The notes under the pieces were generated by a model. It was not told the DNA's origin and did not search any database. It saw only the letters and a list, made by a program, of their open reading frames with translations. Shown here piece after piece: positions 3,201 through 48,941 of a stretch of 64,000 bases of DNA; within the stretch, counting starts at the first letter, position 1, and each line of letters opens with the position of its first letter. The DNA comes from Thermodesulfobacteriota bacterium (GTDB lineage: Bacteria; Desulfobacterota_D; UBA1144; Nemesobacterales; JAJCZQ01): contig OZ244044.1 of assembly GCA_965215275.1 (NCBI GenBank), forward strand, positions 800,001 through 864,000, written 5' to 3'. The position numbers were made by a program, and so were the translations under genes.

Positions 3201-3210
3201 CTTCTTGCTA

Positions 3211-19152: not shown

Positions 19153-19242
19153 GATACCTGCTCCTGATCTTAAAAAATATCAGTCTATCTTATAACAGGG
19201 ACGACTATACCCCCCCCCTGCACTGCTGATCCGAACGGGTAC

Positions 19243-24292: not shown

Positions 24293-27200
24293 ATGAAAGA
24301 ACAATTCAAAAACCTATTCAAGCAGCCGTACAACCGTAGGCATTGGATAAAAATGCTGCAACAACTATTCACCCCCCCCCGCAGATATTTTCATCACCAT
24401 CTGTCATTGAGAACTATGCTGTCAAAGAATTTCACCAACTTGGAACCATAACTCTTGCCGATAGAAAAAAGCTCGGCATCTACGAAATAAAAACCAAATC
24501 TAAAACGCGCATATCTCGCAACCGCGTTCGGATGCGCCACATAGTCGCAAAGGAGTGTCGTAAGAACTCAGAAGATGGAGCTCTTGCCGTTTATTACCAC
24601 GATGATGAAAACCTTTGGCGCTTCAGTTTCATCAGCATGGAATACAAAATAGATGGTGGAAGAGTCATCAGGGAAGAAAGTTCACCAAAACGATACACTT
24701 ATCTGCTTGGTAAAAGTGCCCGAATCCGCACCGCCATAGATCGTTTCAGTCAACTTGCAGAAGAAAATGCTACATTAGAAAACCTTAAAACTGCCTTTGG
24801 TGTGGAACAACTGAACAAGGAGTTTTACAAAAAGCTGTTTGATTGGTACACAAAGGCAAAGGATAGTGTAGTTTTTCCCAACGATACAGTGGAAGAAGAC
24901 AATCGGTCCATAAGTCTGATACGCCTACTCACCCGGTTATTGTTCATCTGGTTCATCAAGGAAAAGGGGCTGATAAATCCTGATTTTTTTGACGAGAACA
25001 AAGTCCGCCAACTCATTTTTTGGAACAAGGACAGCAGCTACTACAAGGCTATCCTACAAAATCTGTTCTTCGCCACACTCAATCGTGAGATCAATGAACG
25101 GAGATTTTGCGCCACCAACTGTTTTGTTACCAATGCTTACCGCTATAAAAACCTGTTCTCAGAACCGGATGAAAAACGGATAATCAACCTATTCAAGCAA
25201 ACCCCTTTTCTAAACGGTGGACTGTTTGAATGTTTGGATAGAAATGCCACCAATGAGGAACAACACTATGATATGGACAAAATCATTATAGGGGAACGTC
25301 AATTAATATGTATTGACAGCTTTTCGGACAGAGAAGACAATCCCCTTCATGTACCGAATGAACTTTTCTTCAATAATGACGATGAATCTCCGGGACTAAT
25401 AAATCTGCTTAAACAATACCAGTTTACTGTGGAGGAAAGCACTCCAATAGATGTAGCCGTTGCCCTAGACCCTGAACTCCTCGGACTGGTTTTTGAAAAA
25501 CTGCTTGATGATCATAACCTGGAAACTAAAGAGTCTACTCGTAGAGAGACCGGTTCCTACTACACCCCTCGAGAAATAGTCAACTACATGGTAGATGAAA
25601 GTCTTAAAGCATATCTTACCCAAACAGTTCCACCCCACGATAGCGACATTGATTTTTACCGTGAATGTCTGGATGAGTTGTTTGTTGCCTCATCTAAAAC
25701 CGATGAAATTACAGGGGAAAACGGAAGAGATTTAATATATAAAGAAGAAATACCAAAATTGATTGAAGCAATCAAAAAAATAAAAATATTAGACCCCGCT
25801 GTTGGTAGTGGTGCCTTTCCCATGGGCGTATTACATCGTTTGGTGTCTTTGCTTAATTTACTTGATCCTAACAGAGAAAATGACTTCGAACGCAAGCTAT
25901 ATCTGATAGAGAACGCCATTTACGGAGTGGATATTCAACTCATAGCCATTCACATTGTCAAACTGCGTTTCTTTATCTCGCTTGTTATAGAACAGGAGCC
26001 AACGCGTAACCCAGCAGAAAACTACGGAATCAAACCCCTACCAAATCTGGAAACCAAATTCACTTGTGCCGACAGCCTGATAGGTTTATACAAACCCAAG
26101 CAACTTAATTTAGAAAATCCAGATATCTCTCAGCGGAAGAAAGAGCTAAAATACATCCGCCAAAAATACTTCACTGCCAAAACCATAAAAACCAAACAAG
26201 AATATAAAGAAAGAGATAAAACACTGAGGAACAAGCTCGCTGGGTTACTGAGAGAAGATGGCTGGAAAAATGATACAACTGAACTTATAGCCAAATGGGA
26301 TCCTTATGACCAAAACTCCAGTGCCCGCTGGTTCGATGCCGAACACATGTTTGGTATTGAAGACAGTTTTGATTTGGTAATTGGCAATCCACCTTATGTG
26401 CAATTGCAGAAAAACAGTGGTAAACTCGGAAATCTCTACCAAAACGCCGGTTACAAAACCTTCAACCGTACGGGCGACATTTACCAATTGTTTTACGAAA
26501 AGGGATGCAAAATGTTGAAAAACAATGCCCACCTTTGCTATATTACCTCTAACAAGTGGATGGGGACAGTATACGGTAAAAAAACCCGTAACTATTTTGC
26601 AACAGAAACAAACCCTATCAAACTGCTGGACTTTAACGGTTGTCAAGTCTTTGAGAATGCGACCGTGGACACTAACATTCTTCTAATCCAAAAAGCAAAA
26701 CCAAAAAACGAACTTCAGGCAACGAGGTTTAAAAATGATTTTAAAAAAGATGACAGCATTAAGCAGTATGTGGAGAGAAATGCTGTATCAATCACTGTCT
26801 CGGACGATACTTGGGTTATTGGCAGTTCTACAGAGTTGAATATTATAAAAAAGTTAAAACGCATTGGTATTCGTCTGAGTAATTGGGAAATATCTATTAA
26901 GAGCGGCATCAAAACTGGTTACAATGATGCTTTCATCATTAATACTGACACTAAAGATAAACTAGTTGCTGAAGATCCTAACTCCGCCGATATTATTAAA
27001 CCCGTTTTGAGGGGTGAGAACATTAAGAGGTATCGTGTACAATGGACAGGAGAGTGGTTGATTAGTACTCATAACGGTTACAACAACATCCCTGCTGTTA
27101 ATATCAATGATTATCCTGCCGTTAAAAATCACCTAGATAAGTTTTACCATCAACTCGCCAAACGACAAGATAAGGGAAAGACACTTTATAACTTGCGCAA

Positions 27201-27630
27201 TTGCACCTACTACGAAAAATTCACTAAGGAAAAATTATTTTTTCCGGATATAGCTGATAAGGGACGTTTTACCTACGACAATAGTAATTTATATGGTGAT
27301 GTTTCAACGCTTCTGATGACCGGGAATTCTCTTAAGTATCTCTGCGCTGTCTTGAATGCAAAGTTAATAAGTTGGTTTTTCCATAACAACAATCCGGGAC
27401 TGGGTTCAAGTCTTAGGTGGAGAAAAAAGTATATGGAGGACATCCCCATTCCTCAAATCTCCAACTTGGAGCAGCAACCCTTCATAAAACTGGTAGAAAA
27501 AATTCTGAAAACCAAAACTTTCAAACCCGAAGCGGACACCAGCAAACAAGAAGCAGAAATAGACCAGTTGGTTTACAAGTTGTATAAATTAACAGAAGTA
27601 GAAATAAGAACCATTGAGAAGAAAGAATGA
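24293..27630 (+). CDS. type IIG (Eco57I/TaqI-like) restriction-modification enzyme, out of frame at a C9 tract
   Basis: ATG 24293 MKEQFKNLFKQPYNRRHW...FT joins PQIFSS... only with C7 or C10; motifs PFLNGGLF, GSYYTPREIV, LDPAVGSGAF, VIGNPPY, TaqI-C-like TRD. Confidence 0.88.
24372..24380 (+). repeat. poly-C (C9) tract, candidate phase-variation switch (OFF)
   Basis: accccccccc at codon 27 of the type IIG gene. Confidence 0.85.
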
Positions 27631-28119
27631 ACGAAATTGCCATCTGCTCAATTGCCGAGTTTCACAAAAAACTGCAAAAACATAAGAAATTTGACAAAAT
27701 GCTAATGTCTTGCCCTTTCAGGATCCATTTTAGAAAAATTAGCAATTTCTTCTAATGTTTCTTTAGGTCTATAGTAAAACCATCTCTTGCAGTATTAATT
27801 ACTGAAGTTTTAATATAAATATAGGGAACTATATGCTTTGTTCACCAAAGTTATTATTTAGTTTTTTTCTCAAGGATTTCTCCTCGCTTTTTAACAGATT
27901 CAGCATTAGGTATGAATATAGCTTTAGCTACCTAATTTATCGTTGATAGTATATTAGAAATAAATCTATATTGTATAAGTTATCTTTTTTTCCTGTCATT
28001 TTATGTACAGATTGCTGATTTTTTCTTTATGTATAGCTAATTTGGGAATTGTATAACCACCATGTTCAACGCGTTAGCAAAAAATCTCATTTAAATTCCC
28101 CTTTTTCCTTGAGCAAAGT

Positions 28120-28578
28120 TCATAACTCTAAAAATTTCCACTCATCCGTACGCTTATAACTTAAATCTATATCTAATTGATTTGCTGCCCAATTATTAAG
28201 TTTGTTTATAAGATCTGGGTTATAAACAAATTCCTTATGGACTCCTAATTCCTTAAATATTACCTTCGTAATTCGTTCACGCGCCCTTGCACCGTTAAAA
28301 ACCACTCCGTTGCATTTAAATGCTCGACCAGTATAGTTCCTGTAATCCAGTATTTTTCTAAGTTTCCTATAATTCATTTCTTTGTATCCAACAAATTTGC
28401 CAATTCCAAATTGAGAGGTGTCAGTGTCATAAACCCAATTATGTTTTCCTGATTTAAAGTAATTACTTTTCATATATCCCCTAAATTCTAAATTATCTTC
28501 TGCCTCTTCATTTAATGTTACAATATTATCCTTAATATCCTGTATTGTTGACACAAAATATAAATCGGGCTTTTGCAT
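28120..28578 (-). CDS. hypothetical protein (WVYD...FG..KFVGYK), possibly a nuclease-associated DNA-binding domain
   Basis: 152-aa ORF with AAGGAG SD; domain resemblance from memory only. Confidence 0.6.
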   Translation of the reverse strand: MQKPDLYFVSTIQDIKDNIVTLNEEAEDNLEFRGYMKSNYFKSGKHNWVYDTDTSQFGIGKFVGYKEMNYRKLRKILDYRNYTGRAFKCNGVVFNGARARERITKVIFKELGVHKEFVYNPDLINKLNNWAANQLDIDLSYKRTDEWKFLEL

Positions 28579-28710
28579 GTTGTATACTCCTTTACTATTG
28601 AATTTTTTTGTTTTTTACTTTTATAGGTTTGTTGATAAAAATAATTCGGGTTTTGCCCATGTTTATCCTTCGTCGGTTATTGTAACATAAGAAAATTAAA
28701 ATAACTATTC

Positions 28711-28739
28711 TTGACTTAAGTTAGAATAAAGAGTAGTAT
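28711..28739 (+). promoter_or_regulatory. candidate sigma70 promoter for the MTase-Mrr gene (nearly leaderless)
   Basis: TTGACT-17 bp-TAGTAT, 9 bp before ATG 28749, no SD. Confidence 0.45.
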
Positions 28740-28748
28740 TCTATAACG

Positions 28749-30216
28749 ATGCAAGGTTCTATCCCCCCCCCCCCCAGAAAATCGCACACTTTATGCAGAC
28801 GATTGTCTGAATGTCCTGAACGATACGTCAAAATTTCCTGATGAGTGTATAGATTTAATCTATTTAGACCCACCATTTAATTCAAACCAAACTTACAACT
28901 TGCCTTTTAAGAGGAAACTAAAGGAGGTTAAACCAGTTGAAGTATTTAAAGATACTTGGACTTGGGGACAAGAAGAAGATGAGATGTTAGAAGGTTTTAA
29001 AAGCAGTAGTAATCCGAATGTAAAAAAGTTGGCGGATTTGGTCTTTCTTGCTCGGTCAATAAACGATGAAAGAACTAAAACAAGAAGTGCAGCTGCTTAT
29101 TTGTGTAACATGGCTATCAGACTTCTATCAATGAAACGAGTATTAAAAAATACGGGAAGTATTTATCTCCATTGTGACCCTACTATGAGCCATTATTTGA
29201 AATTGTCGTTGGATTTGATATTTGGTAGAAAAAATTTTAGAGATGAGATTGCATGGCATTATCCAAGTATGAGCAAGAGATTGTCTGGCTTTCCTAAAAA
29301 ACATGACACAATATTCCGATACACAATGAGTGATAATTATATTTTTAATTATAAAAATATCTTAATACCTTATGCAAAAAGTACAGTAAATAGATCAAAA
29401 TACGGAGGTGCAGGTTTTAAAAGAAAAGAAGGATATTCTAACTATCTTGTGAGAGAAGGTAAAATACCCGATTCAGTATGGAACATTCCACATATTAAAA
29501 GTAAAAATGAACACTTAGGCTACCCTACACAAAAGCCTCTGAAACTACTTGAACGAATAATCAAGGCAAGTAGTAATGAAGGTGATTTAGTTCTTGATCC
29601 TTTTTGTGGATGTGGAACTGCTGTTCATGCTGCAGAAGATCAAAAGAGAAACTGGATAGGGATAGATATATCAAAGTTCTCTACTGGACTTATAAGTGAG
29701 CGTATCTGTAACAATTTTCCTAAATTGCAGAGTAGTGATATAAGAATTTTTAATGTTCCTGACAATTTACAGAGTGCCAGAAACTTAGCAAAACAAGACC
29801 CGTTTGAGTTCGAGAAATGGGTATGTGGGGAGATCGGTGCTCATGGCATGTTCCGTGAACCAGGAAGGAAAGGATCAGACGGTGGGGTTGACGGCATTAT
29901 TGACTTTGGATTGTTTAAGGGGCTTAATAAACTTAGTAAAGGTTATGCTATCGTTCAAGTTAAAGGTGGAAAAGTAACTCCAGATTCAGTTAGAGCATTA
30001 TATCAGACTGTAAAATTTTTTGGTGCAACAGCAGGGGTTTTTGTTTGTTTTAATGAATATATGAACACAGTTGAAAACAACAGAAACAAAGATACTTACA
30101 ACGACCTGACAGGAATATACCCCTTAATTCAAGGATTCAGTGTAGAAGACTTGCTTGCAAAGAAAAAACCTAATCTACCACCACTTGTGATTAGAGAAAA
30201 CGCATTGTTTACTTGA
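28749..30216 (+). CDS. beta-class m6A DNA methyltransferase fused to an Mrr-like restriction endonuclease, out of frame at a C13 tract
   Basis: ATG 28749 MQGSIPPP; main frame PENRTLYADDCL...IYLDPPFNS lies upstream of the listed ORF; YPTQKP, DPFCGCGT; C-terminal FEFEKW...DGGVDG...QVKGG. In frame with C12 or C15. Confidence 0.88.
28763..28775 (+). repeat. poly-C (C13) tract, candidate phase-variation switch (OFF)
   Basis: atcccccccccccccag just after the start codon. Confidence 0.9.
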
Positions 30217-30222
30217 TAGAGT

Positions 30223-30540: not shown

Positions 30541-30578
30541 AAGCAATCTTTATAAGTCTCTGAATTTTTTTGAAGTGT

Positions 30579-30988
30579 CTATTCTCCTTCATTATCTTCC
30601 TCTTCTTCCTCCTCATTTTCACCATTCTCTTCCTCTTCTTCTCCAAACAACTCGTCGACTTTGCATTTGGCTTTGCCTTTCACTTCGTCAGTTATACATT
30701 CAACAACTGTTTTGACAGCTAAACCTAAAACCACAAGATCATCTGATAAACCAACAATTGGTATAACATCTGGAACGACATCTACGGGAGAAATGAAGTA
30801 ACCAAGTGCACCAATTATGATAGTTTTTGCCCAACGTGGTGTTACATTGGTCATGGCAGTTTTTGCTTCAGGAGACTGAAGTGCGTAATAAAGTTGAAGA
30901 GCCAATTCTACACACTTTCTTACAATCTTGATTGCGCCTTTTTTTAGCTTACTCAAAAACCTTTTTCGGAGTTATTTTCATCGGTCAT
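30579..30988 (-). pseudogene. YkvA/DUF1232 family copy 1, frameshifted near the 5' end
   Basis: ATG 30988 MTDENNSEKGF then TGA (ggtttttgagt versus ggtttttggagt in the paralogues); GALGYFISPVDVVPD...GLSDD. Confidence 0.8.
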
Positions 30989-31470
30989 AATTATTCTCCA
31001 TTGTGTAAAATATGGAAAATAATATACTTTGAGCAATCAAGAAAAGCCAACAGAGACTTTATCTCTGTATACCCAGCTACCTTGTGTATTCTACTCTTAA
31101 AACTGTATTTCCTTTTCCGCCAGCTTGTCTGGGTTGGATAACAATATTAATATCTTGTCGGTTTCTTGATTAGTTATATTCATTCAATAAATCTTTTAAA
31201 ATTGGATAATCAATTTCCTCTCTGGCATGACCATCACAAGAAGTATTATAGATGTGTTTAAGGTATTTTAAGCACTGGAATTTTTCCATAGATAGTATGT
31301 AAACTAACAAGATAGATTTTTTATTATACCATCTGTCTAAAATATAATACTGCCAAACACAACTTATATTATATAGAAAATGGTTTATGAAAAACCAAGT
31401 TTTGGGCAACATTGTATATAATCCGCAAATCAAAATTTTGATGCCTTGGCCGGCTACTTCCACACCCACT

Positions 31471-31947
31471 TCAACAGAAAAGGAAATAGATAACAACAAC
31501 AAAAAGGCAGCCTATTAGGACAATTAATGAAAGGTAGCCTATTAGAACAATTAATACCTTACCAATGATAACTGCTACAAGGTAAAGAAGAGGGAGAAGA
31601 AATAAAAATTTTAGGAATCTGAAGAGGTTGGAACCATCCATTGATTCATCAGTATTGGACCCAGACGGATCTCTGGGCTCTGCAGTTTGGTTGAAATCAT
31701 CCGTCGATTCATTAGTGTTGGACCCAGAATCAGATCTTGAAAATAAACTATCATATTGAGCACGTTTGTTCTCATCGCTCAATATTTGATAGGCTTCATT
31801 TATCTTTTTGAACCTTTCCAAAGCAGAATCATCGCCGGGATTTCTATCAGGATGGAACTTAAAAGCAAGTCTTATATACTGCTTTCTTACCTCATACAAA
31901 CTGGCACTTCTGTCAATACCGAGAACTTCATAATAATCTCTGGTCAC
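31471..31947 (-). CDS. J-domain (DnaJ N-terminal) protein with C-terminal TM helices
   Basis: DYYEVLG...FHPDRNPGD...[13 protein letters not shown]...RAQYD; duplicated SGSNT(N/D)ES linker; 2 TM. Confidence 0.85.
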
Positions 31948-32439
31948 TATTTAACTCCAGAAGGTTAATTAAAACCATAAATCAGTTTTAGGTTCAGCAA
32001 ATCCAAACGTTCCTTCACTTATTACAGACCCTTCAACTTCGGCAGTACTTAACTTACCTTTTTTAATAACTTGCATACGGATCACATCTCCTCCGCTTTG
32101 TCTTTTTGACCCTTCCTGCTTTTTTGACCTTCTTTTATAACATCATCAGTTCCACTTCTTATTTTATCCGCTTCATCATTGGTCGATACAACTATCATTG
32201 AGGATTTTATTAATCCACCATTTAATGTAAATTATAAAATCATCTCCTAAGTTGAGAACAAATTTAACATTATATTGCTGAATAAGATTAGGAAAGGACA
32301 ACCTTGTGTTGTGTGGACTATACAAGTCCTGAAGGATTTGAGAATTTATCAAATTTAAGTAACAGAACTAGTGCCTACTACCGAAACAATAAAGATTGTG
32401 TAAAGCAATCTTTATAAATCCCTGAATTTTTTGAAGGGT

Positions 32440-32817
32440 CTATTTTCCTTTGTTATCTACCTCTTCTTCTCCAAACCATTCATTGACTTTGTGTTTGGCC
32501 TTGTCTTTCATTTCGTCAGTTATGTATGCAGCAACCGTTGCAACGGCTACAACGATAACCCCGTAATCGTCTATGAGACCACCTGGTAACAAATCTGGAA
32601 CGGCATCTACGGGAGAGATGAAGTAACCAAGCGCACCAGTTATGACACTTTTTGCCCAAATTGGTGTTTCAGGAGACTGAAGTGCATAATAAAGTTGAAG
32701 TGCCAACTCTACACACTCTCTTCCAGCCTTGATTGCGTATTTTTTAGCCTTACTCCAAAAACCTTCTTTGGAATAGTGCTCCGAATAACCAATTTTAACG
32801 TTATCTTTATCGCTCAT
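32440..32817 (-). CDS. YkvA/DUF1232 family copy 2
   Basis: GGAG SD + ATG 32817; FWSK...LYYAL..P.TP..AK..I.GALGYFISPVDAVPD...DD. Confidence 0.88.
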   Translation of the reverse strand: MSDKDNVKIGYSEHYSKEGFWSKAKKYAIKAGRECVELALQLYYALQSPETPIWAKSVITGALGYFISPVDAVPDLLPGGLIDDYGVIVVAVATVAAYITDEMKDKAKHKVNEWFGEEEVDNKGK

Positions 32818-32877
32818 AATTATTCTCCACTTTGTAAAATATGGGAATAATATATTTTGAGTAATTAAGAAAATCAA

Positions 32878-32992
32878 CTGAGGATTTCAACAAAGCAATT
32901 GCATTAAACCGGGACTTTGCATAAACTTACAATAACCGCGGACTGACTTACGCCGTAACAGGAGTCTATGATAAAGCCATTAAGGATTTCAA
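32878..32992 (+). pseudogene. TPR gene fragment (second copy at 33601-33715)
   Basis: EDFNKAIALNRDFA*TYNNRGLTYAVTGVYDKAIKDFN; DNA nearly identical to about 37972-38085 of the TPR gene. Confidence 0.8.
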
Positions 32993-33165
32993 CTTTACTC
33001 TTTACTGGTAAAGCAGCAACATCAAACTGAAAAATTTCTCTGTATGAATCCTGATGGAAAATGAAAATTTATCAAATTTAAGGAACAAAAACAGTTCCTG
33101 CTACCAAAACAATAAAAATTGTGTCAAGCAATCTTTAGAATTTTTGAAGGGTCTATTTTCCTTTA

Positions 33166-33540
33166 TTATTTTCCTTTATTATTTTCCTCTTCTCCAAACA
33201 ACTCGTTGACTTTGTGTTTGGCTTTGTCTTTCATTTCGTCAGTTATGTATGCAGCAACCGTTGCAACGGCTACAACGATAACCCCGTAATCGTCTATGAG
33301 ACCACCTGGTAACAAATCTGGAACGGCATCTACGGGAGAGATGAAGTAACCAAGCGCACCAGTTATGACACTTTTTGCCCAAATTGGTGTTTCAGGAGAC
33401 TGAAGTGCATAATAAAGTTGAAGTGCCAACTCTACACACTCTCTTCCAGCCTTGATTGCGTATTTTTTAGCCTTACTCCAAAAACCTTCTTTGGAATAGT
33501 GCTCCGAATAACCAATTTTAACGTTATCTTTATCGCTCAT
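33166..33540 (-). CDS. YkvA/DUF1232 family copy 3 (chimera of copies 2 and 4)
   Basis: Identical to copy 2 except its 3' end, which equals copy 4 (NELFGEEENNKGK). Confidence 0.88.
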   Translation of the reverse strand: MSDKDNVKIGYSEHYSKEGFWSKAKKYAIKAGRECVELALQLYYALQSPETPIWAKSVITGALGYFISPVDAVPDLLPGGLIDDYGVIVVAVATVAAYITDEMKDKAKHKVNELFGEEENNKGK

Positions 33541-33888
33541 AATTATTCTCCACTTTGTAAAATATGGGAATAATATATTTTGAGTAATTAAGAAAATCAA
33601 CTGAGGATTTCAACAAAGCAATTGCATTAAACCGGGACTTTGCATAAACTTACAATAACCGCGGACTGACTTACGCCGTAACAGGAGTCTATGATAAAGC
33701 CATTAAGGATTTCAACTTTACTCTTTACTGGTAAAGCAGCAACATCAAACTGAAAAATTTCTCTGTATGAATCCTGATGGAAAATGAAAATTTATCAAAT
33801 TTAAGGAACAAAAACAGTTCCTGCTACCAAAACAATAAAAATTGTGTCAAGCAATCTTTAGAATTTTTGAAGGGTCTATTTTCCTTTA

Positions 33889-34338
33889 TTATTTTCCTTT
33901 ATTATTTTCCTCTTCTCCAAACAACTCGTTGACTTTGTGTTTGGCTTTGTCTTTCATTTCGTCAGTTATGCACCCTGCAACCGTTCTAACGGCTAAAACC
34001 AAAACCCCAAAATCATCTGTGAAACCAACAATTGGCGAAAAATCCGGAATGGCATCTAAGGGAAGGATGAAGTAACCAAGTGGACCAGTTATGACAATTT
34101 TTGCCCAATTTGGTGTTTCAGGAGACTGAAGTGCATAATAAAGTTGAAGTGCCAATTCTACACACTTTCTTACAGCTTTGATTGCACATTTTTTTAACTT
34201 ATTCCAAAAACCTTTTTCAGAATAGTGCTTAGAGTAATTTAGCTTACTCCAAAAACTTTTTTCAGAATAGTATTTCGAATAACGTTGAAATGCCCACTTT
34301 ACACATTTTCTTTTAGTAATGTTATCTTCATCGCTCAT
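33889..34338 (-). CDS. YkvA/DUF1232 family copy 4
   Basis: SD + ATG; duplicated YSK.YSEK.FW.KL segment; LGYFILPLDAIPDFSPIVGFTDD. Confidence 0.85.
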   Translation of the reverse strand: MSDEDNITKRKCVKWAFQRYSKYYSEKSFWSKLNYSKHYSEKGFWNKLKKCAIKAVRKCVELALQLYYALQSPETPNWAKIVITGPLGYFILPLDAIPDFSPIVGFTDDFGVLVLAVRTVAGCITDEMKDKAKHKVNELFGEEENNKGK

Positions 34339-34706
34339 CATTATTCTCCATTTTGTAAAATAATATACTTTTAGTAAGCAAGAAAGGTCAACAGGGGCTT
34401 TGCCTCTGTTAATCCAACTACCTTTTGTATCCAACTATTAAATCTGGATTTTTCCATTCGGTCTTTGTAAGAATTACAGTTAGTTGCATACCTCTTTTGT
34501 TTACAGATAAAGCATACTGCTCTAACAGATTTTTCAGAGTAGAATATTATGAAAGGAATTATATACAAAAATACATTAATCTTTACTTTTGATAGAATAA
34601 GTGCTTTAATAAGAAGTTCAGTGGGTAAAAAATCAACTTACTCAGATTTAACGCTATGAAAAAACCTATAACTCTCAGAAAGCATAAACGCTAAAAACAA
34701 GCAACG

Positions 34707-35568
34707 ATGAAAGGTTCTACCCCCCCCCTACAATCACAGGACGCTCTCAAATAGGGATTACATAAATAAAATCACCTGTGGTGATACTTTAAAACTTATC
34801 CATACTATTGAACCGAAAAGTATCAATCTTATCATAACCAGTCCTCCGTATTTCGGATGCAGAATCTACGGAAATGAAACACTTGGAAGGGAAACTGACC
34901 CCAGAGAATATATAAAAAATATATTAACTTTTACGGATGAATTTAAGCGAGTTTTACATAGTGAAGGCTCATTTTATCTGAACATTGGAGATGTTTATTT
35001 TGGTTCAAAGGGATTTATTAGAAATAAAGGGAAATATGCAAGAAAGACAGACAAACATTATAAAGTTCATAAGATAGTTAAACCTGATGGCAGGTATTTA
35101 CAATACAAACAGCTACTCATGATACCTGAGAGAATCGCCATAGGAATGCAAGAGCAAGGCTGGATATTAAGGAATAAAATAATATGGGAAAAACCCAACC
35201 CCGTACCCAGTTATTCACCTGACAGACGTTACCCTGTTTATGAACATTTCTTTCATTTTGTAAAATCCAGAAAGTATTATTTTGATTTAAAGAAAGCACA
35301 GAAGATTAATCACCATAGGGATGTCATTAGAAATGGAATAGAACCTTTTGGCAGCCATCAAGCCACTTATCCTCTATCTCTTATAAAACCATTCATATAT
35401 ACCACTTCAAAAGAAGGAGATATTGTTCTCGATCCTTTTATGGGAAGCGGTACGACCGCAGTTGCCTGTACAGAGCTTAACAGAAAATTTATAGGGTTTG
35501 AGATCAATCCAGAATTTTGTAAAGAAGCTATGGATAGACTGGAAGAAAATGGAAGATTGTTTTCCTAA
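34707..35568 (+). CDS. beta-class m4C DNA methyltransferase, out of frame at a C9 tract
   Basis: ATG 34707 MKGSTPP; main frame YNHRTLSNRDYINKITCGDTL...IITSPPYFG...LNIGDVY continues without a stop into the listed ORF (HQATYP, DPFMGSGTT). In frame with C8 or C11. Confidence 0.88.
34720..34728 (+). repeat. poly-C (C9) tract, candidate phase-variation switch (OFF)
   Basis: ttctacccccccccta. Confidence 0.85.
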
Positions 35569-35580
35569 TTGGAAATATAG

Positions 35581-36726
35581 ATGCCGTTAATTTCCACTCA
35601 AAAATGTGAGATATTTCAAAATTCCAAAAAAATCGATCTATATTCTTCTTATTTACAATCTATGGCGAGTTTATCCAGATTATTTAGTAATAAGGACGTT
35701 CCTTATTTGCCATATAGAGCAGTTGAAAATATTTTCTGTAAAGCATTTAACGTTGATAATCTTTCCAGAGATGATCTTGCTTACGATGCTAAAGTGGGAA
35801 GTATTGCTTGGGGAATAAAAACCTTCGCTTCTGAATATAAAAAATCACAACAAAAAATATCTGAATTTAATGTTAACAATCAAGAGCTTAAAAAACTTAA
35901 AGGTGAAGAATTAGTTGCTCGTATAGCAGAATTGAGAAATGAAAGAATCATTTTTGCCAATAAAAACTACAAAATCGACAAGGCTTATTATCACTGTGTC
36001 GTGAGGCAGAAAAATGTATTGAAGATTTTTGAAGAACCATACGAGTTTATAGATATTAATAAGATCACAAATATAAGAAGTACCAATCCCAGCATATCTT
36101 TTAAAGATAATAACAATGAATATAGCTTTAATTTTTCTAAAAGTACTCTACTTAAAAAATTCTATACACCAGAAAATACATTAGACATAGATGTAGAAAT
36201 AATTGATTCTCCTTTAGAACTACTAGATGAGATTATTCGTCAGCTATCAGAATTCAGAAAACCCGTACAAGAGAATTTTGTCATATTACCTTTATACTCC
36301 ACTCGTAGTAGAGACCAAAAGACAATTCCAGAGAGAAGTGGTTTAAACCAGTGGAATGCCGGTGGTAGAGAAAGAGACTATGGAGAGGTTTATATTCCCA
36401 TTCCGCAGAACATACATAAAAAATATCCCAATTTCTTCCCCAACAGGAATGTATCTTTTAACTTGATAGTGCCAAGTGGGGAAATATTATCTGCAAAGGT
36501 GTGTCAAGACAATAGCAAGGCATTAATGACAAACCCTAATAATGCTTTAAGTGAATGGATGTTGAGAGATGTGCTGAGGCTACAAGAAGGTGAACTTTTA
36601 ACTTATAAAAAATTATTAACTCTGGGAATAGATAGTATGAAAGTAGTAAAAGTGGACAAAGAAAACTATAAAATTAATTTTTCCAAGATAGGAAGTTATG
36701 AAGAGTTTATAAACCATGAGCGTTAG
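35581..36726 (+). CDS. type II restriction endonuclease (NgoFVII-family-like)
   Basis: YRAVENIFC...DLAYDAK...GIKTF...QKISEFN (PD-(D/E)XK-like); SGLNQWNAGGR..EVYIPIP; 12 bp after the MTase. Confidence 0.75.
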   Translation: MPLISTQKCEIFQNSKKIDLYSSYLQSMASLSRLFSNKDVPYLPYRAVENIFCKAFNVDNLSRDDLAYDAKVGSIAWGIKTFASEYKKSQQKISEFNVNNQELKKLKGEELVARIAELRNERIIFANKNYKIDKAYYHCVVRQKNVLKIFEEPYEFIDINKITNIRSTNPSISFKDNNNEYSFNFSKSTLLKKFYTPENTLDIDVEIIDSPLELLDEIIRQLSEFRKPVQENFVILPLYSTRSRDQKTIPERSGLNQWNAGGRERDYGEVYIPIPQNIHKKYPNFFPNRNVSFNLIVPSGEILSAKVCQDNSKALMTNPNNALSEWMLRDVLRLQEGELLTYKKLLTLGIDSMKVVKVDKENYKINFSKIGSYEEFINHER

Positions 36727-36879
36727 TTAACTCCATTAATTTTGTTTCTGAAAAAATTCCCTGTACGAATCCTGATGGAGAATGAAAATTTATCAATTTT
36801 AAGGAACAAAGACAATTCCTGTTACCGAAACAATAAAGATTGTGTCAAGCAATATAAATCCCTGAATTTTTTGAAGAGT

Positions 36880-37212
36880 CTATTCTCCTTTATTATCTTC
36901 CTTTTCTTCTCCAAACCACTCGTTGACTTTGTCTTTGGCTTTGTTTTTCATTTCGTCAGTTATGTATTTAGCAACCGTTCTACGGGCTAAAACGAGAACC
37001 ACATAATCATCTACGAAGCCAATAATTGGTAAAAAATCGGGAATGACATCTAAGGGAAGAATGAAGTAACCAAGTGCACCATATATAACATTTTTTGCCC
37101 AAATTGGTGTTTCAGGAGACTGAAGTGCATAATAAAGTTGAAGTGCCAATTCTACACACTCTCTTCCAGCCTTGATTGCGTATTTTTTAGCAACATTATC
37201 TCCATCACTCAT
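36880..37212 (-). CDS. YkvA/DUF1232 family copy 5 (N-terminally shortened)
   Basis: GALGYFILPLDVIPDFLPIIGFVDD; same SD/leader as the other copies. Confidence 0.85.
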   Translation of the reverse strand: MSDGDNVAKKYAIKAGRECVELALQLYYALQSPETPIWAKNVIYGALGYFILPLDVIPDFLPIIGFVDDYVVLVLARRTVAKYITDEMKNKAKDKVNEWFGEEKEDNKGE

Positions 37213-37668
37213 CATTATTCTCCATTTTGTAAAATATGGAAAATAATATACTTTTAGTAAGGAAGAAAGGTCAACAGGGACTTTGCCTCTGTTGACCCAG
37301 TTACTTTTTTTATCCTACTCTTAAATCTGGATTTCTCCATTCGGTCTTTTTTAAGAATTACAGTTATTTAATACTCTTTTCGTTTACAGATAAAGCATGC
37401 TGCTCTAAAAGATCTTTCAGAGTAGAGTATTATGAATATGTCTAATATAATCTCTAAGCATTTGTAAGATTACAGAGTGAGTACAGACGATACCATGTGT
37501 TTTTTATGTCTACTTCCCTTAAAAACCAAGGGATAGAGTAATTTATTCCATGACCCATATAAAAAACGTCATCAAAATAAGATTAAGATTGAAAATCAGA
37601 CTTTATAAACCATTGGCAATTTTTGTTGTATAATATCCAAGCAAAAACATAACTTCCGGAGAATAAAC

Positions 37669-38379: not shown

Positions 38380-38434
38380 AGAAAAAAACTCGTAAGCAAG
38401 CTGACCGTATACCGGCTTGAAATATTAAAAAACC

Positions 38435-39550
38435 CTACTGGCCGTTAATTAACTTCTGTTCAAGAAAGCGTTCGCATATCCGGTAGAACGTCACCATGGA
38501 CTCAACGTCGATCCACTCGTCCTTTGCGTGCACGTTCCCTACAACAGGTCTGGAGATAACAACAGGAATGCTGTACTTGGTAATGAACCTTGCATCACTT
38601 GCACCATCTTCATAAACAAAAGAGGCTCTTTCACCCGTTACTTCTTCTATAACGGACTTGAACACATGGTTCGGTTCAAGTTCCAGCGGTTCGGCAGACA
38701 GGATGTTCTCAATTTTAATACTGTCTCCCAGTATAGATGCAGTTTTCGCCTTTATCTGATCGACGGTATAGGGGGCAGGAAAACGTATATCCAGATTGGC
38801 CTTAGCCTTTGCCGGAACGAGATTGATCGTTGTGTTCGGGGTATTCAGGATGGTGAGAGAACAGGTAGGACGCCAGTTGCCACTGCCTGTCTTCAGCGAA
38901 CTGAAATACCGCTTCAGATCCAGGATCTTCTCGATCAAAGTCTCAACTGCATTCGTTCCAAGCCATGGACGTGCCGCATGACTTGAACGCCCGCTGCACG
39001 AAACGTGAAGGTGCATGACGCCCTTTTCCGCCACCGTGATCTCGTTCAGACTGCCGCCGTCGGGATTGATGGCAAGGCCGCATCTCAGTCCGACCTGGTC
39101 GAACAGGTACCCTATTCCCGATTCCCCTCCCTGCTCTTCATCTGAAGTGATCGCAATACCCAAGGACGACCCCGGGTACTTTTTATGAAAATTTGAAAAC
39201 AGTTCAAGCATAACGGACATTGCACCTTTCATATCCCCGCATCCGGAACCAAATATCTTCCCGCTTTTAACTACCGTGTCGTAAGCTCCTATATCGTTGT
39301 GATCAATAACGTCCAGATGAGAGATAAGCAGAATTTCAGGAGCGGTTATACCATAAGGCATGGCTACCAGCGAGGGAACGCCGACCCAGCGGTGTTCCTT
39401 AACCTCTATGCCGTCAGTTCTTTCCACCTGGGACTTAACGAACCCAAAGCACCGTTCAAGGTCGTCAAGCCGGAGAGACGTGCCGGGGATCGAAACAAGT
39501 TCTCTCGTAAGTGCTATCAGCCGTTCTCTTATATCATCAGTCTTGCTCAT
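38435..39550 (-). CDS. M20/M25/M40 metallopeptidase (DapE/ArgE-like)
   Basis: SHLDV, GCGDMKG, DEEQGG, SSHAARPW, GASDARF, HAKDE. Confidence 0.9.
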   Translation of the reverse strand: MSKTDDIRERLIALTRELVSIPGTSLRLDDLERCFGFVKSQVERTDGIEVKEHRWVGVPSLVAMPYGITAPEILLISHLDVIDHNDIGAYDTVVKSGKIFGSGCGDMKGAMSVMLELFSNFHKKYPGSSLGIAITSDEEQGGESGIGYLFDQVGLRCGLAINPDGGSLNEITVAEKGVMHLHVSCSGRSSHAARPWLGTNAVETLIEKILDLKRYFSSLKTGSGNWRPTCSLTILNTPNTTINLVPAKAKANLDIRFPAPYTVDQIKAKTASILGDSIKIENILSAEPLELEPNHVFKSVIEEVTGERASFVYEDGASDARFITKYSIPVVISRPVVGNVHAKDEWIDVESMVTFYRICERFLEQKLINGQ

Positions 39551-40889
39551 AATACCATTTCATGGGTAATTTATCCTGAAGACCATTAAGGGTCTCCAGA
39601 CATATCTGCAGATCCTTTCCCAAAAACAGGAACTGACCTTTTGTGACCTTTCTGCCACTGTCCAGATTAAAGTTTATAGGTAAGAACCCCTGGTCCTTTC
39701 CGGGATAGAACAGCACGTCACATTTATCCATGGTCTCAAGCAGCTGCTCTCCACTTATGTGCCTGTTAGTTTCCAGGTTGCTCATGATCCATGCCCCTTC
39801 GGACATGAAATAACGAGCCAGTATGGACGGATAGGTAGCACCGGTCACTCTGGCGTTCACCTCGCATACAAAGACCTCTTCCAGTCCATCTTTGAAAGTA
39901 ACTATAAAATCAACCCCTGCCATACCTCTGTATCCTTGCGAAAAGAGCCACTTACCGACAACGGCAGACTGACGAAGCATCTCATCCCTCAGGTCGGAAC
40001 GAGGTTCTAGATACGGAGGTGGAGAAAGATTGCCCTGATGGATGCTCTGACTGGACAGTATCTGCTCCGTAACGTCATAGATGAAGACGCTGTCTTCACC
40101 AATAAAGACCTGAACGCTTGGTGAGTAAACTTCCCTGATACCGTTAATGCCCGGTTCAAGCCAGCCCTGCACCATACAGCCTCCTTCCCAGAACATGTAT
40201 CCGGGCAGGTTTATATTACGTTCGGACGTATCCACTTTGACCATGCCTACTCCGGAAGCTCCTATCTGGGACTTTACAACGGCGGTCTTATATCCTTTTT
40301 TCTCAAGCGACCTTATACATGGTACAACGCCGTCGTTAGAGGCTGCTATCTCGGTGTCGCATATCGGCATGCTTTTTTCCTTCAGATAGTTGTAAAGTGC
40401 AAGTTTGTTATTGCACAGGCGGCTGGAATCAGTGGTATTGAAGCAGTTCTTACCCAGCTTCAGGGACCATTTTATCAAAGTCTCATCAGTTACGAACCCA
40501 TCAACGGATCCGGCAGGATGCCGGGACACCTTTTCTGCAAACAGTCTGGCTTTATTACTAACCCTGTCCTTATCGACCGAATAAAAATCCTCATAAGACA
40601 ACAGTTCAACGTGCGGAAGCTGTAATTTCAGGTCCTTGCTGAAGTATTTCTGTATCGACCGGGAAGGTTCATTTGCCAGTACCAGCAGATTTTCCTGGCC
40701 TTTATATACAATGTTTATTATCGGCAGCAGCCTGCCACCGTAAGTCTTAACCCCATGGACCGCTTCCTGAAGATGGTTCAGCTTTGCTTTATTTCCAAAA
40801 AAAAGCGACTTCAGATTAACAAAAAATACGACCGACCTGTCCCAGAAGTTCGGCAGTTTTCCCGGATGTACGTTTACATTCAAAGACAA
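39537..40889 (-). CDS. ATP-grasp ligase (pre-ATP-grasp/PGM1-like peptide ligase)
   Basis: NNKL, VVKSQIGASGVG, SPSVQ, EQIL...HQGN, GVDF, EVNARVTGATY. Confidence 0.75.
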   Translation of the reverse strand: MSLNVNVHPGKLPNFWDRSVVFFVNLKSLFFGNKAKLNHLQEAVHGVKTYGGRLLPIINIVYKGQENLLVLANEPSRSIQKYFSKDLKLQLPHVELLSYEDFYSVDKDRVSNKARLFAEKVSRHPAGSVDGFVTDETLIKWSLKLGKNCFNTTDSSRLCNNKLALYNYLKEKSMPICDTEIAASNDGVVPCIRSLEKKGYKTAVVKSQIGASGVGMVKVDTSERNINLPGYMFWEGGCMVQGWLEPGINGIREVYSPSVQVFIGEDSVFIYDVTEQILSSQSIHQGNLSPPPYLEPRSDLRDEMLRQSAVVGKWLFSQGYRGMAGVDFIVTFKDGLEEVFVCEVNARVTGATYPSILARYFMSEGAWIMSNLETNRHISGEQLLETMDKCDVLFYPGKDQGFLPINFNLDSGRKVTKGQFLFLGKDLQICLETLNGLQDKLPMKWYYEQD

Positions 40890-40931
40890 TTAATGCTCCT
40901 GATCAACGACAGGTCGACTTAATATAGTTCT

Positions 40932-41438
40932 CTATAACTTATTCCCGTAAAGGTTCAGATGAAAGACCTCTTCGGGAGCTTTTCTGTACTTGTGGTGCGT
41001 TATCATCCTTTTGTCAAAATAACCAAAAGGCAGAACGGTTAAAACGTTCCATCTGTCGGGTATGTTAAGAGATCGTTTGAGCCCATCAGTTTCAATTCTG
41101 CCTATCCAGCAGGAACCCAGACCCAAGCTCCATGCGACCAGCACCATGTTCTGAACCGCTCTTGTCGTGTCTATTTCGTGCCATTTTGACCCCGGGTCGG
41201 TCAAAACGACCACTCCAAAAGCAGACTGCGATATGAACCGTCCGCTTATACAGTACGGTTCCATCTCTTTTAACTTCTTCTTATCCGTGATCAGAATAAA
41301 CTCCCAAGGCTGATCATTATGAGCACTGGGAGCCAGTCTTCCTGCTTCAAGCACTTTCTGTATGACCTCTGAACTAACTTCCCTGTCGTGATAACTTCTG
41401 ACCGAACTTAATGTTGAAACACACTCGAGAACTTCCAT
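40932..41438 (-). CDS. nitroreductase family protein
   Basis: SVRSY, APSAHNDQPWEF, QNMVL.AWSLGLGSCWIG. Confidence 0.93.
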   Translation of the reverse strand: MEVLECVSTLSSVRSYHDREVSSEVIQKVLEAGRLAPSAHNDQPWEFILITDKKKLKEMEPYCISGRFISQSAFGVVVLTDPGSKWHEIDTTRAVQNMVLVAWSLGLGSCWIGRIETDGLKRSLNIPDRWNVLTVLPFGYFDKRMITHHKYRKAPEEVFHLNLYGNKL

Positions 41439-41730
41439 TGATGCCCCTCGCGTTTTAAGTTTTGCAGGTATACTATAAATGATTTAACATATTAGTTAAC
41501 CCTGATTTACTTTTTTAATTGTCGTTTTGGGAATTATTAAGAAAAGTTGACAAAATACTATAACTTTCCTTAATCTTGAACTTTTTTAATAGACGGTTTA
41601 CCCTTTGAATTTACAGTTAAAGTAAACCGTTGGTCCAACTGTTCGGTGGAACTGCACTTGTGTCAAGAAGCGACATTACCGCTTTATCTAATTTGTTCCA
41701 CTCTGCTTTTTACTCACTATGTTTCTACTG

Positions 41731-42819
41731 TTATTTTCCTGACTTTCGTCTGTTGCAATCCCTACATAACATCTGACAATTACTCTCTTCTGTCTTTCCG
41801 CCCTCATTCCAAGGAGTTATGTGGTCCCCTTCCATCTGTTTTATATCAAACTTCTTGTTGCACTTAGGACAAACTCCTTCCTGCTTTTGATATACTTTCA
41901 GTTTCATCGAATCTGAAAATGAACGAATATTTAAATACCTCTCATCTCTTGTTAATACATAAGGATATATTCCCTTCTTATTTGTTACATCATCATCTAA
42001 TATCAAATCTTTCATCTCTTCTTCTAATTTATCAGGATCATATTTGTTATTTTTATATGTGTTATAAAGTGTTCCCCAATCCACACCTTTCATTATCGTC
42101 CTCTTTTCTCCTGTAAATGTTGTCTCTATCCAATTTATCACCTTATTAAAATGCTCCCATAATTCTTTAGCATCATTTTTATGTTTAGCCTGATGAGCCA
42201 TATATTCTTCAATTTTGTTATCACTGATCCACTTTATTGCAGTTTGTAGATACTCTTGTCTTATGGGAGATCCGTTCAAGTATTTTCTTCCTATACCATA
42301 AGCAGAACATCCATTTTTACTGAAATATCTTTTAGCATCTGTAACCCAAGACCCTGAATAAACCGCATTTCTCAACTCTTGTTCTGTTAATTTCTCACCC
42401 GCTATGTTGATCGTTCTAAACCAATCCAACTTCTCAGTGTCCGTTCCGCTACAAAAATAAACCATAAGTTTATAGTTCAATATCTGGTTTTGTTTATCGT
42501 CTTTTAAATTGTCAAAATACATACTGTTAAATGAAAAAGTGCCATTTACATATTGACAGATAGATATTGTCCTTTGTTGTCCATCAATTATCTCAAAGTT
42601 ACCATCTTCTTTGTCCGCCCAATACATAACATTAAGCGGAAAATCTTGAGTTATTGTATTTATAACTGCATCTCTCTCTTTCGTATTGTAAATGAACTCC
42701 CGCTGATACGGAGGTCTTATATCCAACTTTCCACCATATCCAAATACTCCATCATTTCCCTTGTCTGTATATCCTTCAGTTAGTTTACGGACTGTAATTT
42801 CTTTGAGTTTGATTTTCAT
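41731..42819 (-). CDS. DUF262 (GmrS-like) + HNH restriction endonuclease
   Basis: IRPPYQREF, IIDGQQR, FRTIN..G..LT.QELRNA; C-terminal CPKC...DHITPW.EGG.T...NCQMLCRDCN. Confidence 0.88.
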   Translation of the reverse strand: MKIKLKEITVRKLTEGYTDKGNDGVFGYGGKLDIRPPYQREFIYNTKERDAVINTITQDFPLNVMYWADKEDGNFEIIDGQQRTISICQYVNGTFSFNSMYFDNLKDDKQNQILNYKLMVYFCSGTDTEKLDWFRTINIAGEKLTEQELRNAVYSGSWVTDAKRYFSKNGCSAYGIGRKYLNGSPIRQEYLQTAIKWISDNKIEEYMAHQAKHKNDAKELWEHFNKVINWIETTFTGEKRTIMKGVDWGTLYNTYKNNKYDPDKLEEEMKDLILDDDVTNKKGIYPYVLTRDERYLNIRSFSDSMKLKVYQKQEGVCPKCNKKFDIKQMEGDHITPWNEGGKTEESNCQMLCRDCNRRKSGK

Positions 42820-42822
42820 AAT

Positions 42823-43830
42823 TTATAACCTTTTATTCTTGATTAAAATGCGGTGGTAAAGATTTTTACCGTTTATCATTGCAGTTGGATTATTGCCAGT
42901 TAAATAAATCCCAGCAGATTCTTTGCTATTTGTTTTTCCCAGTATATCAAACTGGTCAGGATTATATTTATCCAGAAAAGTAATGGGAACACCCATTACC
43001 CCCCCCCCACCATAATCTATTGGGATTTCTTTAACTTTATTTACATTTATTGCATTGTAATTGTCATATTTAGGATATTCTTCAGGAGTATACTTCTTGT
43101 AGAGTATTAAATCCTCGTGGCGTTTAGATATATCAAGATTAGTAAACCAATTAACTCTACCCATACTAAAATATTTCTTACCATTTTCTATCTTCTTTCT
43201 TGACTCTGTTTTTATATCATAATGTTCTTTAACCCCAAACCATTTTGTTCCACCATTATTAACACCTAACCATAATTTATTTTCTTTTATTAACTTAAAT
43301 ATTTCTTTATAAGTTACTGCATTTTGATCCCCTAATATCACAAATTTTTTGTTATATTTTACCAACTGTACGACATATTCCCTGAACAGAGAAAAAGGGG
43401 GATTTGTTACTACAATATCAGCTTGCTTGAGTAATTCTATACACTCTGGACTACGGAAATCTCCATCACCTTTTAAGTAATTTACTTCAACCTCTTCTAT
43501 ATCAGGCTTCCTGTTATTATTCTTATCGCCTGTATATTCAAGGTAAATGCCTTTGTCAGAATTATTCTGACTAAATAAATCTCTTTCCTGGTTTTTATAG
43601 CAAGTGGTAATGAGTTTCTTTAATCCTAAACTTTCAAACTTATAAGAAAAATAATGAAAGAATTGACTGACTGTCGGATCGTCGCAGTTACAGTAAACTA
43701 TCTTATCCTTAAAATGATCTTTGTAATGCTTCAGTTCCGCTTCAACATCTACAAGTTGCGTATAAAACTCATCTTTCTTAGCATTCTTTGCCCTATGTAA
43801 ATTAGCATTCAAACTTTCTGTAGATTTCAT
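42823..43830 (-). CDS. EcoRI-family adenine DNA methyltransferase, paralogue B (in frame, G10)
   Basis: KKDEFYT, CNCDDP, GDGDFRS, VTNPPFSLFRE, DYGGGGVMGVPITFLDKYNP. Confidence 0.9.
   Translation of the reverse strand: MKSTESLNANLHRAKNAKKDEFYTQLVDVEAELKHYKDHFKDKIVYCNCDDPTVSQFFHYFSYKFESLGLKKLITTCYKNQERDLFSQNNSDKGIYLEYTGDKNNNRKPDIEEVEVNYLKGDGDFRSPECIELLKQADIVVTNPPFSLFREYVVQLVKYNKKFVILGDQNAVTYKEIFKLIKENKLWLGVNNGGTKWFGVKEHYDIKTESRKKIENGKKYFSMGRVNWFTNLDISKRHEDLILYKKYTPEEYPKYDNYNAINVNKVKEIPIDYGGGGVMGVPITFLDKYNPDQFDILGKTNSKESAGIYLTGNNPTAMINGKNLYHRILIKNKRL
42999..43008 (-). repeat. poly-G (G10) tract, candidate phase-variation switch (ON)
   Basis: C10 on the + strand; encodes part of GGGG. Confidence 0.85.
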
Positions 43831-43833
43831 TAT

Positions 43834-44825
43834 TTATACCTTTTTATTTCTAATTAAAATCCTAAAATATGGACACTTCCCTTTAATTGACAAATCTTTT
43901 TCATCATTCCCTTTTCTAAACTTTATTATCTCAAACTGCTCTGGATTATATTTGTCCAAAAAACTGATAGGAACACCGACCCCCCCCCATAATTTTTCGG
44001 AATTTCTTTTATTTTATCCACATTTATAGCATCATAGTTATCATAAGCAGGATATTTCTCAGGGTCATATTTTTCATAAAGAATTAAATCCTCATACCTC
44101 TTGCTATGTTCTAAATTAGTAAACCAAACACCAGATGATCTGCCTTTAACGCTACCATCTATTATTCTATATCCACTACCTTCTTTTTTGGTTGCAACTA
44201 ATTCTTCTGCATATTCTTTAGGAATATCAAATAACATATCGGTTCCCATAGACTTATACCCTAACCACAACTTATTTTCCTTAATTAAAGAAAATATCTC
44301 CTTATAAGTTATAGCGTTCATATTACCAATAATGATAAATTTCTTATTATACTCAATCAACTGTGCAACATATTCCCTGAATAGAGAAAAGGGAGGATTA
44401 GTTACTACAATATCGGCTTGCTTGAGTAATTCTATACACTCTGGACTACGGAAATCACCATCACCTTTTAAATAATTTACTTCAACCTCTTCTATATCAG
44501 GTTTCCTGTTATTATTCTTATCGCCTGTGTATTCAAGATAAATGCCTTTGTCAGAATTATTCTGACTAAATAAATCTCTTTCCTGGTTTTTATAGCAAGT
44601 GGTAATGAGTTTCTTTAATCCTAAACTTTCAAACTTATAAGAAAAATAATGAAAGAATTTACTGACTGTCGGATCGTCGCAGTTACAGTAAACTATCTTG
44701 TTTTTGAAATGCTCTTCATAGTGTCGTAACTCTTCCTCAATATATTCAAGCCGAGTATAAAACTCATCTTTCTTTTCCTTTTTTGCTTTATGCAAATGGA
44801 TATTTGATTGTTTTGTAGACTTCAC
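43834..44825 (-). CDS. EcoRI-family adenine DNA methyltransferase, paralogue A, out of frame at a G9 tract
   Basis: Same motifs; the conserved tail VGVPISFLDKYNPEQFEII...RILIRNKKV* (stop 43836-43834) is in another frame and is restored by G10; likely GTG start 44825. Confidence 0.88.
43980..43988 (-). repeat. poly-G (G9) tract, candidate phase-variation switch (OFF)
   Basis: C9 on the + strand, at the position equivalent to the paralogue's tract. Confidence 0.85.

Positions 44826-45131: not shown

Positions 45132-48941
<3,810 letters not shown>

Follow-up and report, generated by a model that had tools for sequence, protein, structure and literature searches.

Slipped-strand mispairing at G/C runs of at least eight bases leads to reversible switching (PMC3936762, PMC6321876), and several bacteria are described as using it on methyltransferase (MTase) genes. 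For Helicobacter pylori, the phase-variable MTases include the type IIG JHP1272/HP1353-54, the BcgI-like S subunit HP1471, and type III mod, with frame repair having brought back activity in four of seven (PMC3936762). In Campylobacter jejuni, the on or off state of type IIG Cj0031 alters methylation and phage restriction (PMC4889913), while Campylobacter strains hold 5-81 phase-variable genes of this kind (PMC6321876) and a count of 115 is reported for Neisseria meningitidis (PMC5084427). In Mycoplasma agalactiae, type III MTases arranged in tandem carry (GA)n, and a CpG MTase carries poly-G (PMC9465063). A 2026 review (PMC13076061) describes on/off switching as little represented in type II systems. 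Here, we describe five MTase genes of restriction-modification (RM) systems that each carry a C/G tract, located in a 64,000-nt stretch of DNA (the window; G000:800001-864000, contig OZ244044.1) from a Thermodesulfobacteriota bacterium. Its genome, G000, is a single contig of 1.99 Mb and 99.9% complete, and we read its lineage as class Ca. Dadabacteria. Among 80 loci listed for its GMP synthase, those named Ca. Dadabacteria score 64-72%, whereas the top match (83%) bears the label Spirochaetia and several at 63-73% bear Deltaproteobacteria or Thermodesulfobacteriota. A literature search, which left most subscription papers outside, returned no relevant paper on phase variation in Dadabacteria or sponge symbionts.

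As in H. pylori, there are multiple RM genes of several types in one genome, frameshifted at C/G homopolymers and mostly off. Ours differs in bacterial class and in its systems: EcoRI-family MTases are paired with a GmrSD-HNH nuclease, one MTase is fused to Mrr, and a stand-alone N4-methylcytosine (m4C) MTase lies next to an intact nuclease. Cj0031 likewise has a homopolymer switch within a large gene joining an MTase to a target recognition domain (TRD), though the window gene has its poly-C near the 5' end, follows a PLD-SNF2 helicase, and has no evident N-terminal nuclease motif. With M. agalactiae, the window shares two tandem repeat-switched MTases before one nuclease (44825-41731) and poly-G in a type II MTase; there, however, the tandem system is type III and restriction requires Mod, while the window encodes its nuclease separately, as a GmrSD-HNH protein. 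On the genome scale, G/C tracts that peak at 9-10 and lie in surface-modifying and RM genes resemble the Campylobacter phasome found with PhasomeIt (PMC6321876).

The five tracts, in window coordinates, are as follows.
24372-24380, + strand: C9 tract inside the Eco57I-like gene; off
28763-28775, + strand: C13 tract inside the MTase-Mrr gene; off
34720-34728, + strand: C9 tract inside the stand-alone m4C MTase gene; off
42999-43008, + strand (coding strand reads G10): C10 tract in EcoRI-family MTase B; in frame
43980-43988, + strand (coding strand reads G9): C9 tract in EcoRI-family MTase A; off

These tracts are real and set the reading frame, and each lies in an MTase gene exactly where a first-pass annotation had placed it. 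When products were computed per length, tract length determined the frame, and all five genes proved otherwise intact, with no second lesion. From ATG 24293, the Eco57I-like gene gives 52 aa with C9 and 1112 aa with C10; from ATG 28749, the MTase-Mrr gene gives 30 aa with C13 and 488 aa with C12; and from ATG 34707, the m4C MTase gene gives 15 aa with C9 and 286 aa with C8. For the EcoRI-family pair, the upstream gene A gives 299 aa with G9 and 330 aa with G10 from GTG 44825, while the downstream gene B, with G10, is in frame at 335 aa. The four off genes are each one base away from a full-length product, and so the annotated pattern of four broken genes and one in frame, each repairable by a single nucleotide, is borne out. 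The tracts sit within coding sequence at lengths far above the expectation from composition, with six C/G runs of at least 9 per 64 kb against 0.08 expected under an independent, identically distributed model. In these features the window loci would class as contingency loci; genes of this kind would get annotated as pseudogenes or be assigned wrong starts. The sixth run, an intergenic C9 at 19210-19218, is indeed the only other one in the window, as had been noted by eye, and remains the last even at a threshold of 7. It sits between two tRNA-Gly genes (18879-18955 and 19076-19150) on one side and the end of an MFS gene on the other, and its target is not evident.

Tract lengths also vary between samples. 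We compared the window with contigs assembled from four runs (X1, X3, and X4 among them) of one study (P1), which account for 99% of the sampled words. The long contigs equal the window apart from the tracts, and all four runs bridge all five tracts; substitution rows we read as cross-mapping among repeats and paralogues, and the other indel rows (31993 and 37734) fall in repeated DNA. Tracts 24372 and 43980 are C9 in every run. By comparison, tract 28763 is C13 in three runs and C14 in X3 (depth 69), both lengths being off; tract 34720 is C9 in two runs, C10 in X3 (depth 68), and C9 plus C10 in X4 (C10 contig at depth 208, flanks at 577 and 669), all off; and tract 42999 is C10 in three runs and C11, hence off, in X1 (depth 13). 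Lengths therefore differ at three of the five tracts among four runs of one strain, in agreement with the variability first proposed. Elsewhere, 13 A/T runs of 7-8 nt, which fall short of the tracts in length, are all absent from the listed changes. Runs from other studies (X5, X6, X7, and X9) are shallow, and among the rows listed only X5 bridged a tract (42999, C10), so that absent coverage in these runs says nothing about tract length.

Were all the genes truly in frame, miscalled homopolymers in sequencing or assembly could cause both the frameshifts and the between-run differences. In keeping with this, library types are unrecorded, the four deep runs come from one study and may include the assembly source, and the three length differences are all +1. 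Yet out-of-frame lengths recur at the four off loci in 4/4 runs, at depths up to ~600, and no P1 run has an in-frame length there; a single in-frame length in all reads, which the first-pass annotation had named as the mark of miscalls, is thus not what the runs show. Moreover, two C9 tracts stay invariant while a third varies (X4 has three C9 tracts and a second allele at one only), miscalls are unable to yield the genome's 133 long runs plus a gap at 7 (see below), and a congener (G001), assembled independently, is out of frame at the same site of its MTase-Mrr gene. Assembly error is an unlikely explanation, by now largely refuted for the frameshifts, and as an account of the whole pattern we give the artefact very little credence. 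As tract variation is already seen in public runs, it is testable with existing reads plus kinetic methylome data.

The switched genes and their immediate neighbours in the window are listed below.
20995..24270, + strand: PLD(HKD)-SNF2 helicase, intact, tract-free (Pfam PLDc_2, SNF2, Helicase_C; PADLOC HKD+Snf2)
24293..27630, + strand: Eco57I-like N6-methyladenine (m6A) MTase-TRD gene, frame lost at codon 27 (Pfam; PADLOC REase_MTase_IIG)
28711..28775, + strand: promoter-like leader (TTGACT-17-TAGTAT; promoter predicted from sequence) with ATG 28749 and the C13 tract
28749..30216, + strand: beta-class MTase (DPPF) fused to an Mrr-type nuclease domain, frame lost after codon 5 (Pfam N6_N4_Mtase and Mrr_cat)
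34679..34728, + strand: leader with ATG 34707 and C9 tract 34720-34728 (sequence comparison)
34707..35568, + strand: stand-alone beta-class MTase, TSPPY (m4C predicted), frame lost after codon 5 (Pfam, motif)
35581..36726, + strand: NgoFVII-like type II restriction endonuclease, intact (Pfam RE_NgoFVII_C; PADLOC REase_II 21-378)
41731..42819, - strand: GmrSD_N-HNH endonuclease, intact, 3 nt 3' of EcoRI-family B (Pfam, PADLOC)
42823..43830, - strand: EcoRI-family MTase B, G10 tract, in frame (Pfam)
43834..44825, - strand: EcoRI-family MTase A, G9 tract, out of frame (Pfam)

The Eco57I-like protein has the make-up of a gamma-class m6A MTase with a C-terminal TRD, with Eco57I and TaqI_C domains, an NPPY motif, and a PADLOC REase_MTase_IIG match at E 1e-142. 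The type IIG label of the first-pass annotation rests on that match; in the N-terminal 330 aa, an alignment with 60 homologues makes no conserved PD-(D/E)xK pattern evident. An HKD nuclease motif lies in the upstream PLD-SNF2 helicase, the likely partner of this switched gene, which starts 22 nt 3' of it. The N-terminus 5' of the tract agrees with the homologues, and TTG 24343 was rejected as an alternative in-frame start, as the homologues and P0002 start at the position of ATG 24293. P0002, a protein sequence 90% identical to the Eco57I-like product, reads through the tract site in frame with three prolines that are missing in all other 118 homologues. Its gene was not located in the five genomes searched.

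In the m4C MTase, the SPPY catalytic motif stands ahead of the S-adenosylmethionine-binding motif, as TSPPY in the window gene and in 120 of 120 homologues. The NgoFVII-like nuclease gene begins 12 nt 3' of it and retains 52 of 54 columns highly conserved among 125 homologues; it has no close relative among 100 other genomes of the order, and no solved structure matched either this nuclease or the EcoRI-family MTase. Downstream of tract 34720, no in-frame ATG, GTG, or TTG occurs before 35119, and ACG is found where the m4C homologues start. A role for this tract as a promoter-spacer switch (ATGAAA-16-TACAAT) was considered and rejected, promoter-like sites being at chance level (10 versus 10.5 expected).

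Both EcoRI-family MTases (PF13651) are full-length matches with an NPPF motif (E 2.7e-137 and 5.8e-114), and conservation reaches 90% or more in 15 of 57 columns 3' of the tract, which means that truncation loses conserved sequence. A and B have an identical stretch in common and differ in the variable region, where B follows the family consensus and A does not, and the specificity of A is therefore likely to be other than that of B. The full gene occurs in five other genomes, with G011 having a G9 at the same codons, in frame, and the pairing of MTase and GmrSD_N-HNH recurs in G011, G015, and G009.

A census of G000 shows how these loci fit into the genome at large. C/G runs number 787 at 5 nt, 78 at 6, none at 7, 6 at 8, 68 at 9, 32 at 10, 18 at 11, and 15 longer. 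Runs of at least 9 thus total 133, where extrapolating geometrically from the 5- and 6-runs would predict 0.08. Among 101 genomes of the order, only G000 is without 7-runs, and it ranks second in exact 9-runs (68 versus 87 in G011). We classified the 139 runs of at least 8 by hand: 85 are at genes of subtilase-like surface proteins; MTase coding regions, intact or interrupted, have 12, decayed MTase stubs 7, and the stretch upstream of an MTase 1. A further 8 fall in TPR genes and 12 in glycan-modifying genes or genes next to these, and 14 are other or intergenic. The MTase set consists of 30 loci (31 rows, with one 33-residue weak match excluded), of which 11 have a tract in the coding region. 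By a crude gene count, the figure for other genes is ~33 of 1477 when subtilase-like genes are set aside (odds ratio 25, p 1.3e-10) and 88 of 1537 when they are counted in (odds ratio 9.5, p 7e-7). Both p values are overstated, as paralogues are non-independent. The tracts are thus enriched in RM genes yet lie mostly elsewhere, and RM genes are one class of a general contingency system. As a separate observation, A/T runs in G000 never exceed 9, and 109 of the 139 long tracts read as C on the + strand, on either side of GC-skew switches.

Beyond the window, further frame-setting tracts, all out of frame, are at G000:342688, 567315, 1048690 and 1049819, 1306215, 1814694, and 1001504, in genes for a type ISP enzyme, a second type IIG-like enzyme, a type III mod (two tracts), and three beta-class MTases; the type ISP tract, inside the specificity domain, is possibly a specificity switch. 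The twelfth repeat-bearing MTase gene encodes an MTase-HNH protein (G000:675469-676890, L194) and has (CAGAG)32 four bases after its ATG, being off at 32 copies and in frame at 31 or 34. The subtilase-like family has 58 open reading frames (ORFs) with S8 and P domain (e.g., L009:16225-19431 and L012:11500-13983), and in most of them Ig repeats and a membrane anchor at the C-terminus are also present. A C/G tract lies inside or just upstream of 54, ~30 having two tracts 70 nt apart. The catalytic triad pattern is missing in most of the 58, and the four tract-free ORFs retain more of it. One design hence covers 12 MTase genes and about 56 surface-protein genes, a phasome above the Campylobacter range, high in scale and no record. 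Taken as a whole, the first-pass interpretation holds in that the tracts are real, frame-setting, variable at three of the five loci, and MTase-enriched (11/30). It fails on concentration in RM genes, true of the window but not of the genome (12 of 139, against 85 at subtilase-like genes), and on the proposed 2^5 states, which undercount the loci (12 repeat-bearing MTase genes) and overstate what is observed, with one of the 12 in frame.

The trait is patchy across the 101 genomes. Long C/G runs are also numerous in G011, G025, G001, G044, G052, and G005, some in RM genes, and G011 has 87 runs of exactly 9 versus 15 of 7. In other genomes of the order, 4 of the 22 homologous loci carry a C/G run of at least 8, either within the gene or at its start; one G000 locus was examined in addition, and three loci were not included. 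The tract is absent in the G002 homologue of the MTase-Mrr gene, and the G001 orthologue has a C9 at the same site and is likewise off. Given the many TPR and surface-protein paralogues and the homologues in Entotheonellaceae, Poribacteria, and Ca. Mycalebacterium, G000 may be host-associated. These three groups have sponges as their habitat.

From this evidence, the tracts are very probably working switches, and we put at roughly 0.7 the probability that they are slipped-strand on/off switches giving the population mixed RM defences. Replication slippage at a tract would gain or lose one base and so switch the frame reversibly, with the majority of cells holding most RM genes off and rare cells turning one on. 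Such an on cell would have an altered methylation pattern and would restrict phage or other DNA bearing the majority pattern, any effects on gene expression being a by-product. The single-chain genes (MTase-Mrr and Eco57I-like) would be harmless when off, and where a separate nuclease follows 3' (34707-36726 and 44825-41731), early termination would silence it via polarity or lost translational coupling. In favour of this, the sole in-frame gene of the five adjoins its presumed nuclease. At two loci the switched MTase and an intact nuclease are separate neighbouring genes, which offers a test of how such cells escape self-restriction; run X1 has EcoRI-family A and B both off, with the GmrSD-HNH gene 3' of them intact. 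For safety in the off state, we prefer polarity or lost coupling, as Rho is encoded in G000; alternatively, another MTase among the 30 could cross-protect, or initiation could be leaky.

A number of observations weigh against defence diversification by switching. The m4C MTase is off in 4/4 runs beside an intact NgoFVII-like nuclease, which poses a self-restriction puzzle. An on-to-off change was observed once (42999 in X1, at depth 13), and the changes at 28763 and 34720 link two off lengths. Both on and off alleles are on hand for EcoRI-family B (off at that depth) and, across orthologues, for the Eco57I-like gene; for the MTase-Mrr gene, the m4C gene, and EcoRI-family A, no in-frame allele was found in the runs or relatives, these three being off only. 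The P1 contigs lose rare alleles, besides the unrecorded library types and the possible assembly source among the runs. In EcoRI-family B itself, the tract segment has nine residues, with two extra Gly, versus seven in 117 of 119 homologues, and as this segment is otherwise of fixed length, the in-frame allele may be inactive. Furthermore, MutS (868 aa) and MutL (617 aa) have intact open frames, so G000 does not class as mismatch-repair-deficient and the mutator background considered for it was rejected, with the consequence that none accounts for a high rate. Being in frame is rarer than one third both among the repeat-bearing MTase genes (the 1/12 above, P 0.054) and among the subtilase-like genes tested (9/51, P 0.010). 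Lastly, seven short decayed MTase N-terminal stubs retain an ATG and a poly-C leader (G000:384592, 496990, 570916, 734754, 899109, 1401695, and 1490289). Several of them sit ahead of defence-like genes (ZacA/ZacB, an HmaA-like helicase, Nmad2/3, and an MTase), for which they might be switchable leaders.

The off bias is compatible with a costly on state and with decay alike. If the tracts are mutational hot spots in decaying genes, C runs past 7-8 would expand; they would be eliminated from essential genes but last in dispensable ones, marking a first step of pseudogenisation rather than an adaptive switch. The strong off bias, the seven degraded poly-C stubs together with one copy interrupted by an insertion sequence, and intergenic tracts without an obvious target, such as 19210, are all as expected from this. 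However, none of the five genes has acquired a second lesion, the tracts cluster a few codons past start codons, and 19 of the 30 dispensable MTase loci are without a C/G tract. In addition, the G000 and G001 MTase-Mrr genes, both off at the same site despite 24% protein divergence, are 76% identical 3' of the tract with a nonsynonymous-to-synonymous rate ratio (dN/dS) of 0.19 over 470 codons, a ratio indicative of purifying selection acting downstream of an off tract. We hold decay to be quite improbable as the general explanation.

It could also be that the switches are kept mainly to reprogramme expression, for instance of the surface-protein family, with defence secondary. Such phasevarions are known for type I and III systems, transcript changes are reported for C. 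jejuni cj0031 (PMC4889913), and a type III mod gene of G000 bears two tracts. On the other hand, all five window genes contain or adjoin intact nuclease domains, which points to defence, and the surface-protein genes carry tracts of their own; a 2025 review (PMC11868660) leaves undecided which of the two, phasevarions or phage resistance, was the driver of such systems. This makes expression control unlikely as the main purpose, and mixed RM defences remain our preferred explanation.

The 5' leaders bear on how such switches arise. The N-terminal proline run of the m4C gene is absent from 120 of 120 homologues, whose catalytic motif sits at position 31 in the median, ~12 residues before its place in the full-length product of the window gene. 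Here, the leader matches that of the MTase-HNH gene at G000:1814694 in 33 of 41 nt, with an alignment score of 62, where 704 other gene starts score at most 33.5, while the proteins are only ~30% identical; we infer that the m4C switch leader was grafted from another gene. The MTase-Mrr leader resembles the decayed stubs (39 of 58 nt identical with 496990). Moreover, a 13-mer around the -35 box, TATTCTTGAC[AT]TT, has 10 occurrences, each ahead of a poly-C leader, at eight subtilase-like genes and two MTase stubs. Leader scores between the MTase and subtilase-like families reach 50 versus a background maximum of 42, moderately raised and partly due to promoter consensus. A tentative and rather doubtful extension is that a portable promoter-ATG-poly-C cassette spreads by recombination onto unrelated genes and makes contingency loci of them: grafted on the m4C methylase and shared by MTase stubs and surface-protein genes, it would switch a classical type II system of two genes as one operon while sparing the cell self-restriction. 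The lineage concerned would be a non-pathogen whose homopolymer phasome ranks among the largest known.

Among other features of the window, five DUF1232 genes lie in near-tandem units of ~723 bp at 30579-37215, along with a DnaJ-domain gene and TPR remnants, and two copies of this unit flank the m4C RM pair. An EcoRII-like nuclease with a C5 MTase-Vsr fusion (1980-4935, - strand) is tract-free and serves as an internal control, an unswitched RM system. Finally, a 1251-aa ORF at 45132-48887 (- strand) has ~440 aa of TPR repeats joined in frame to a complete GyrB.

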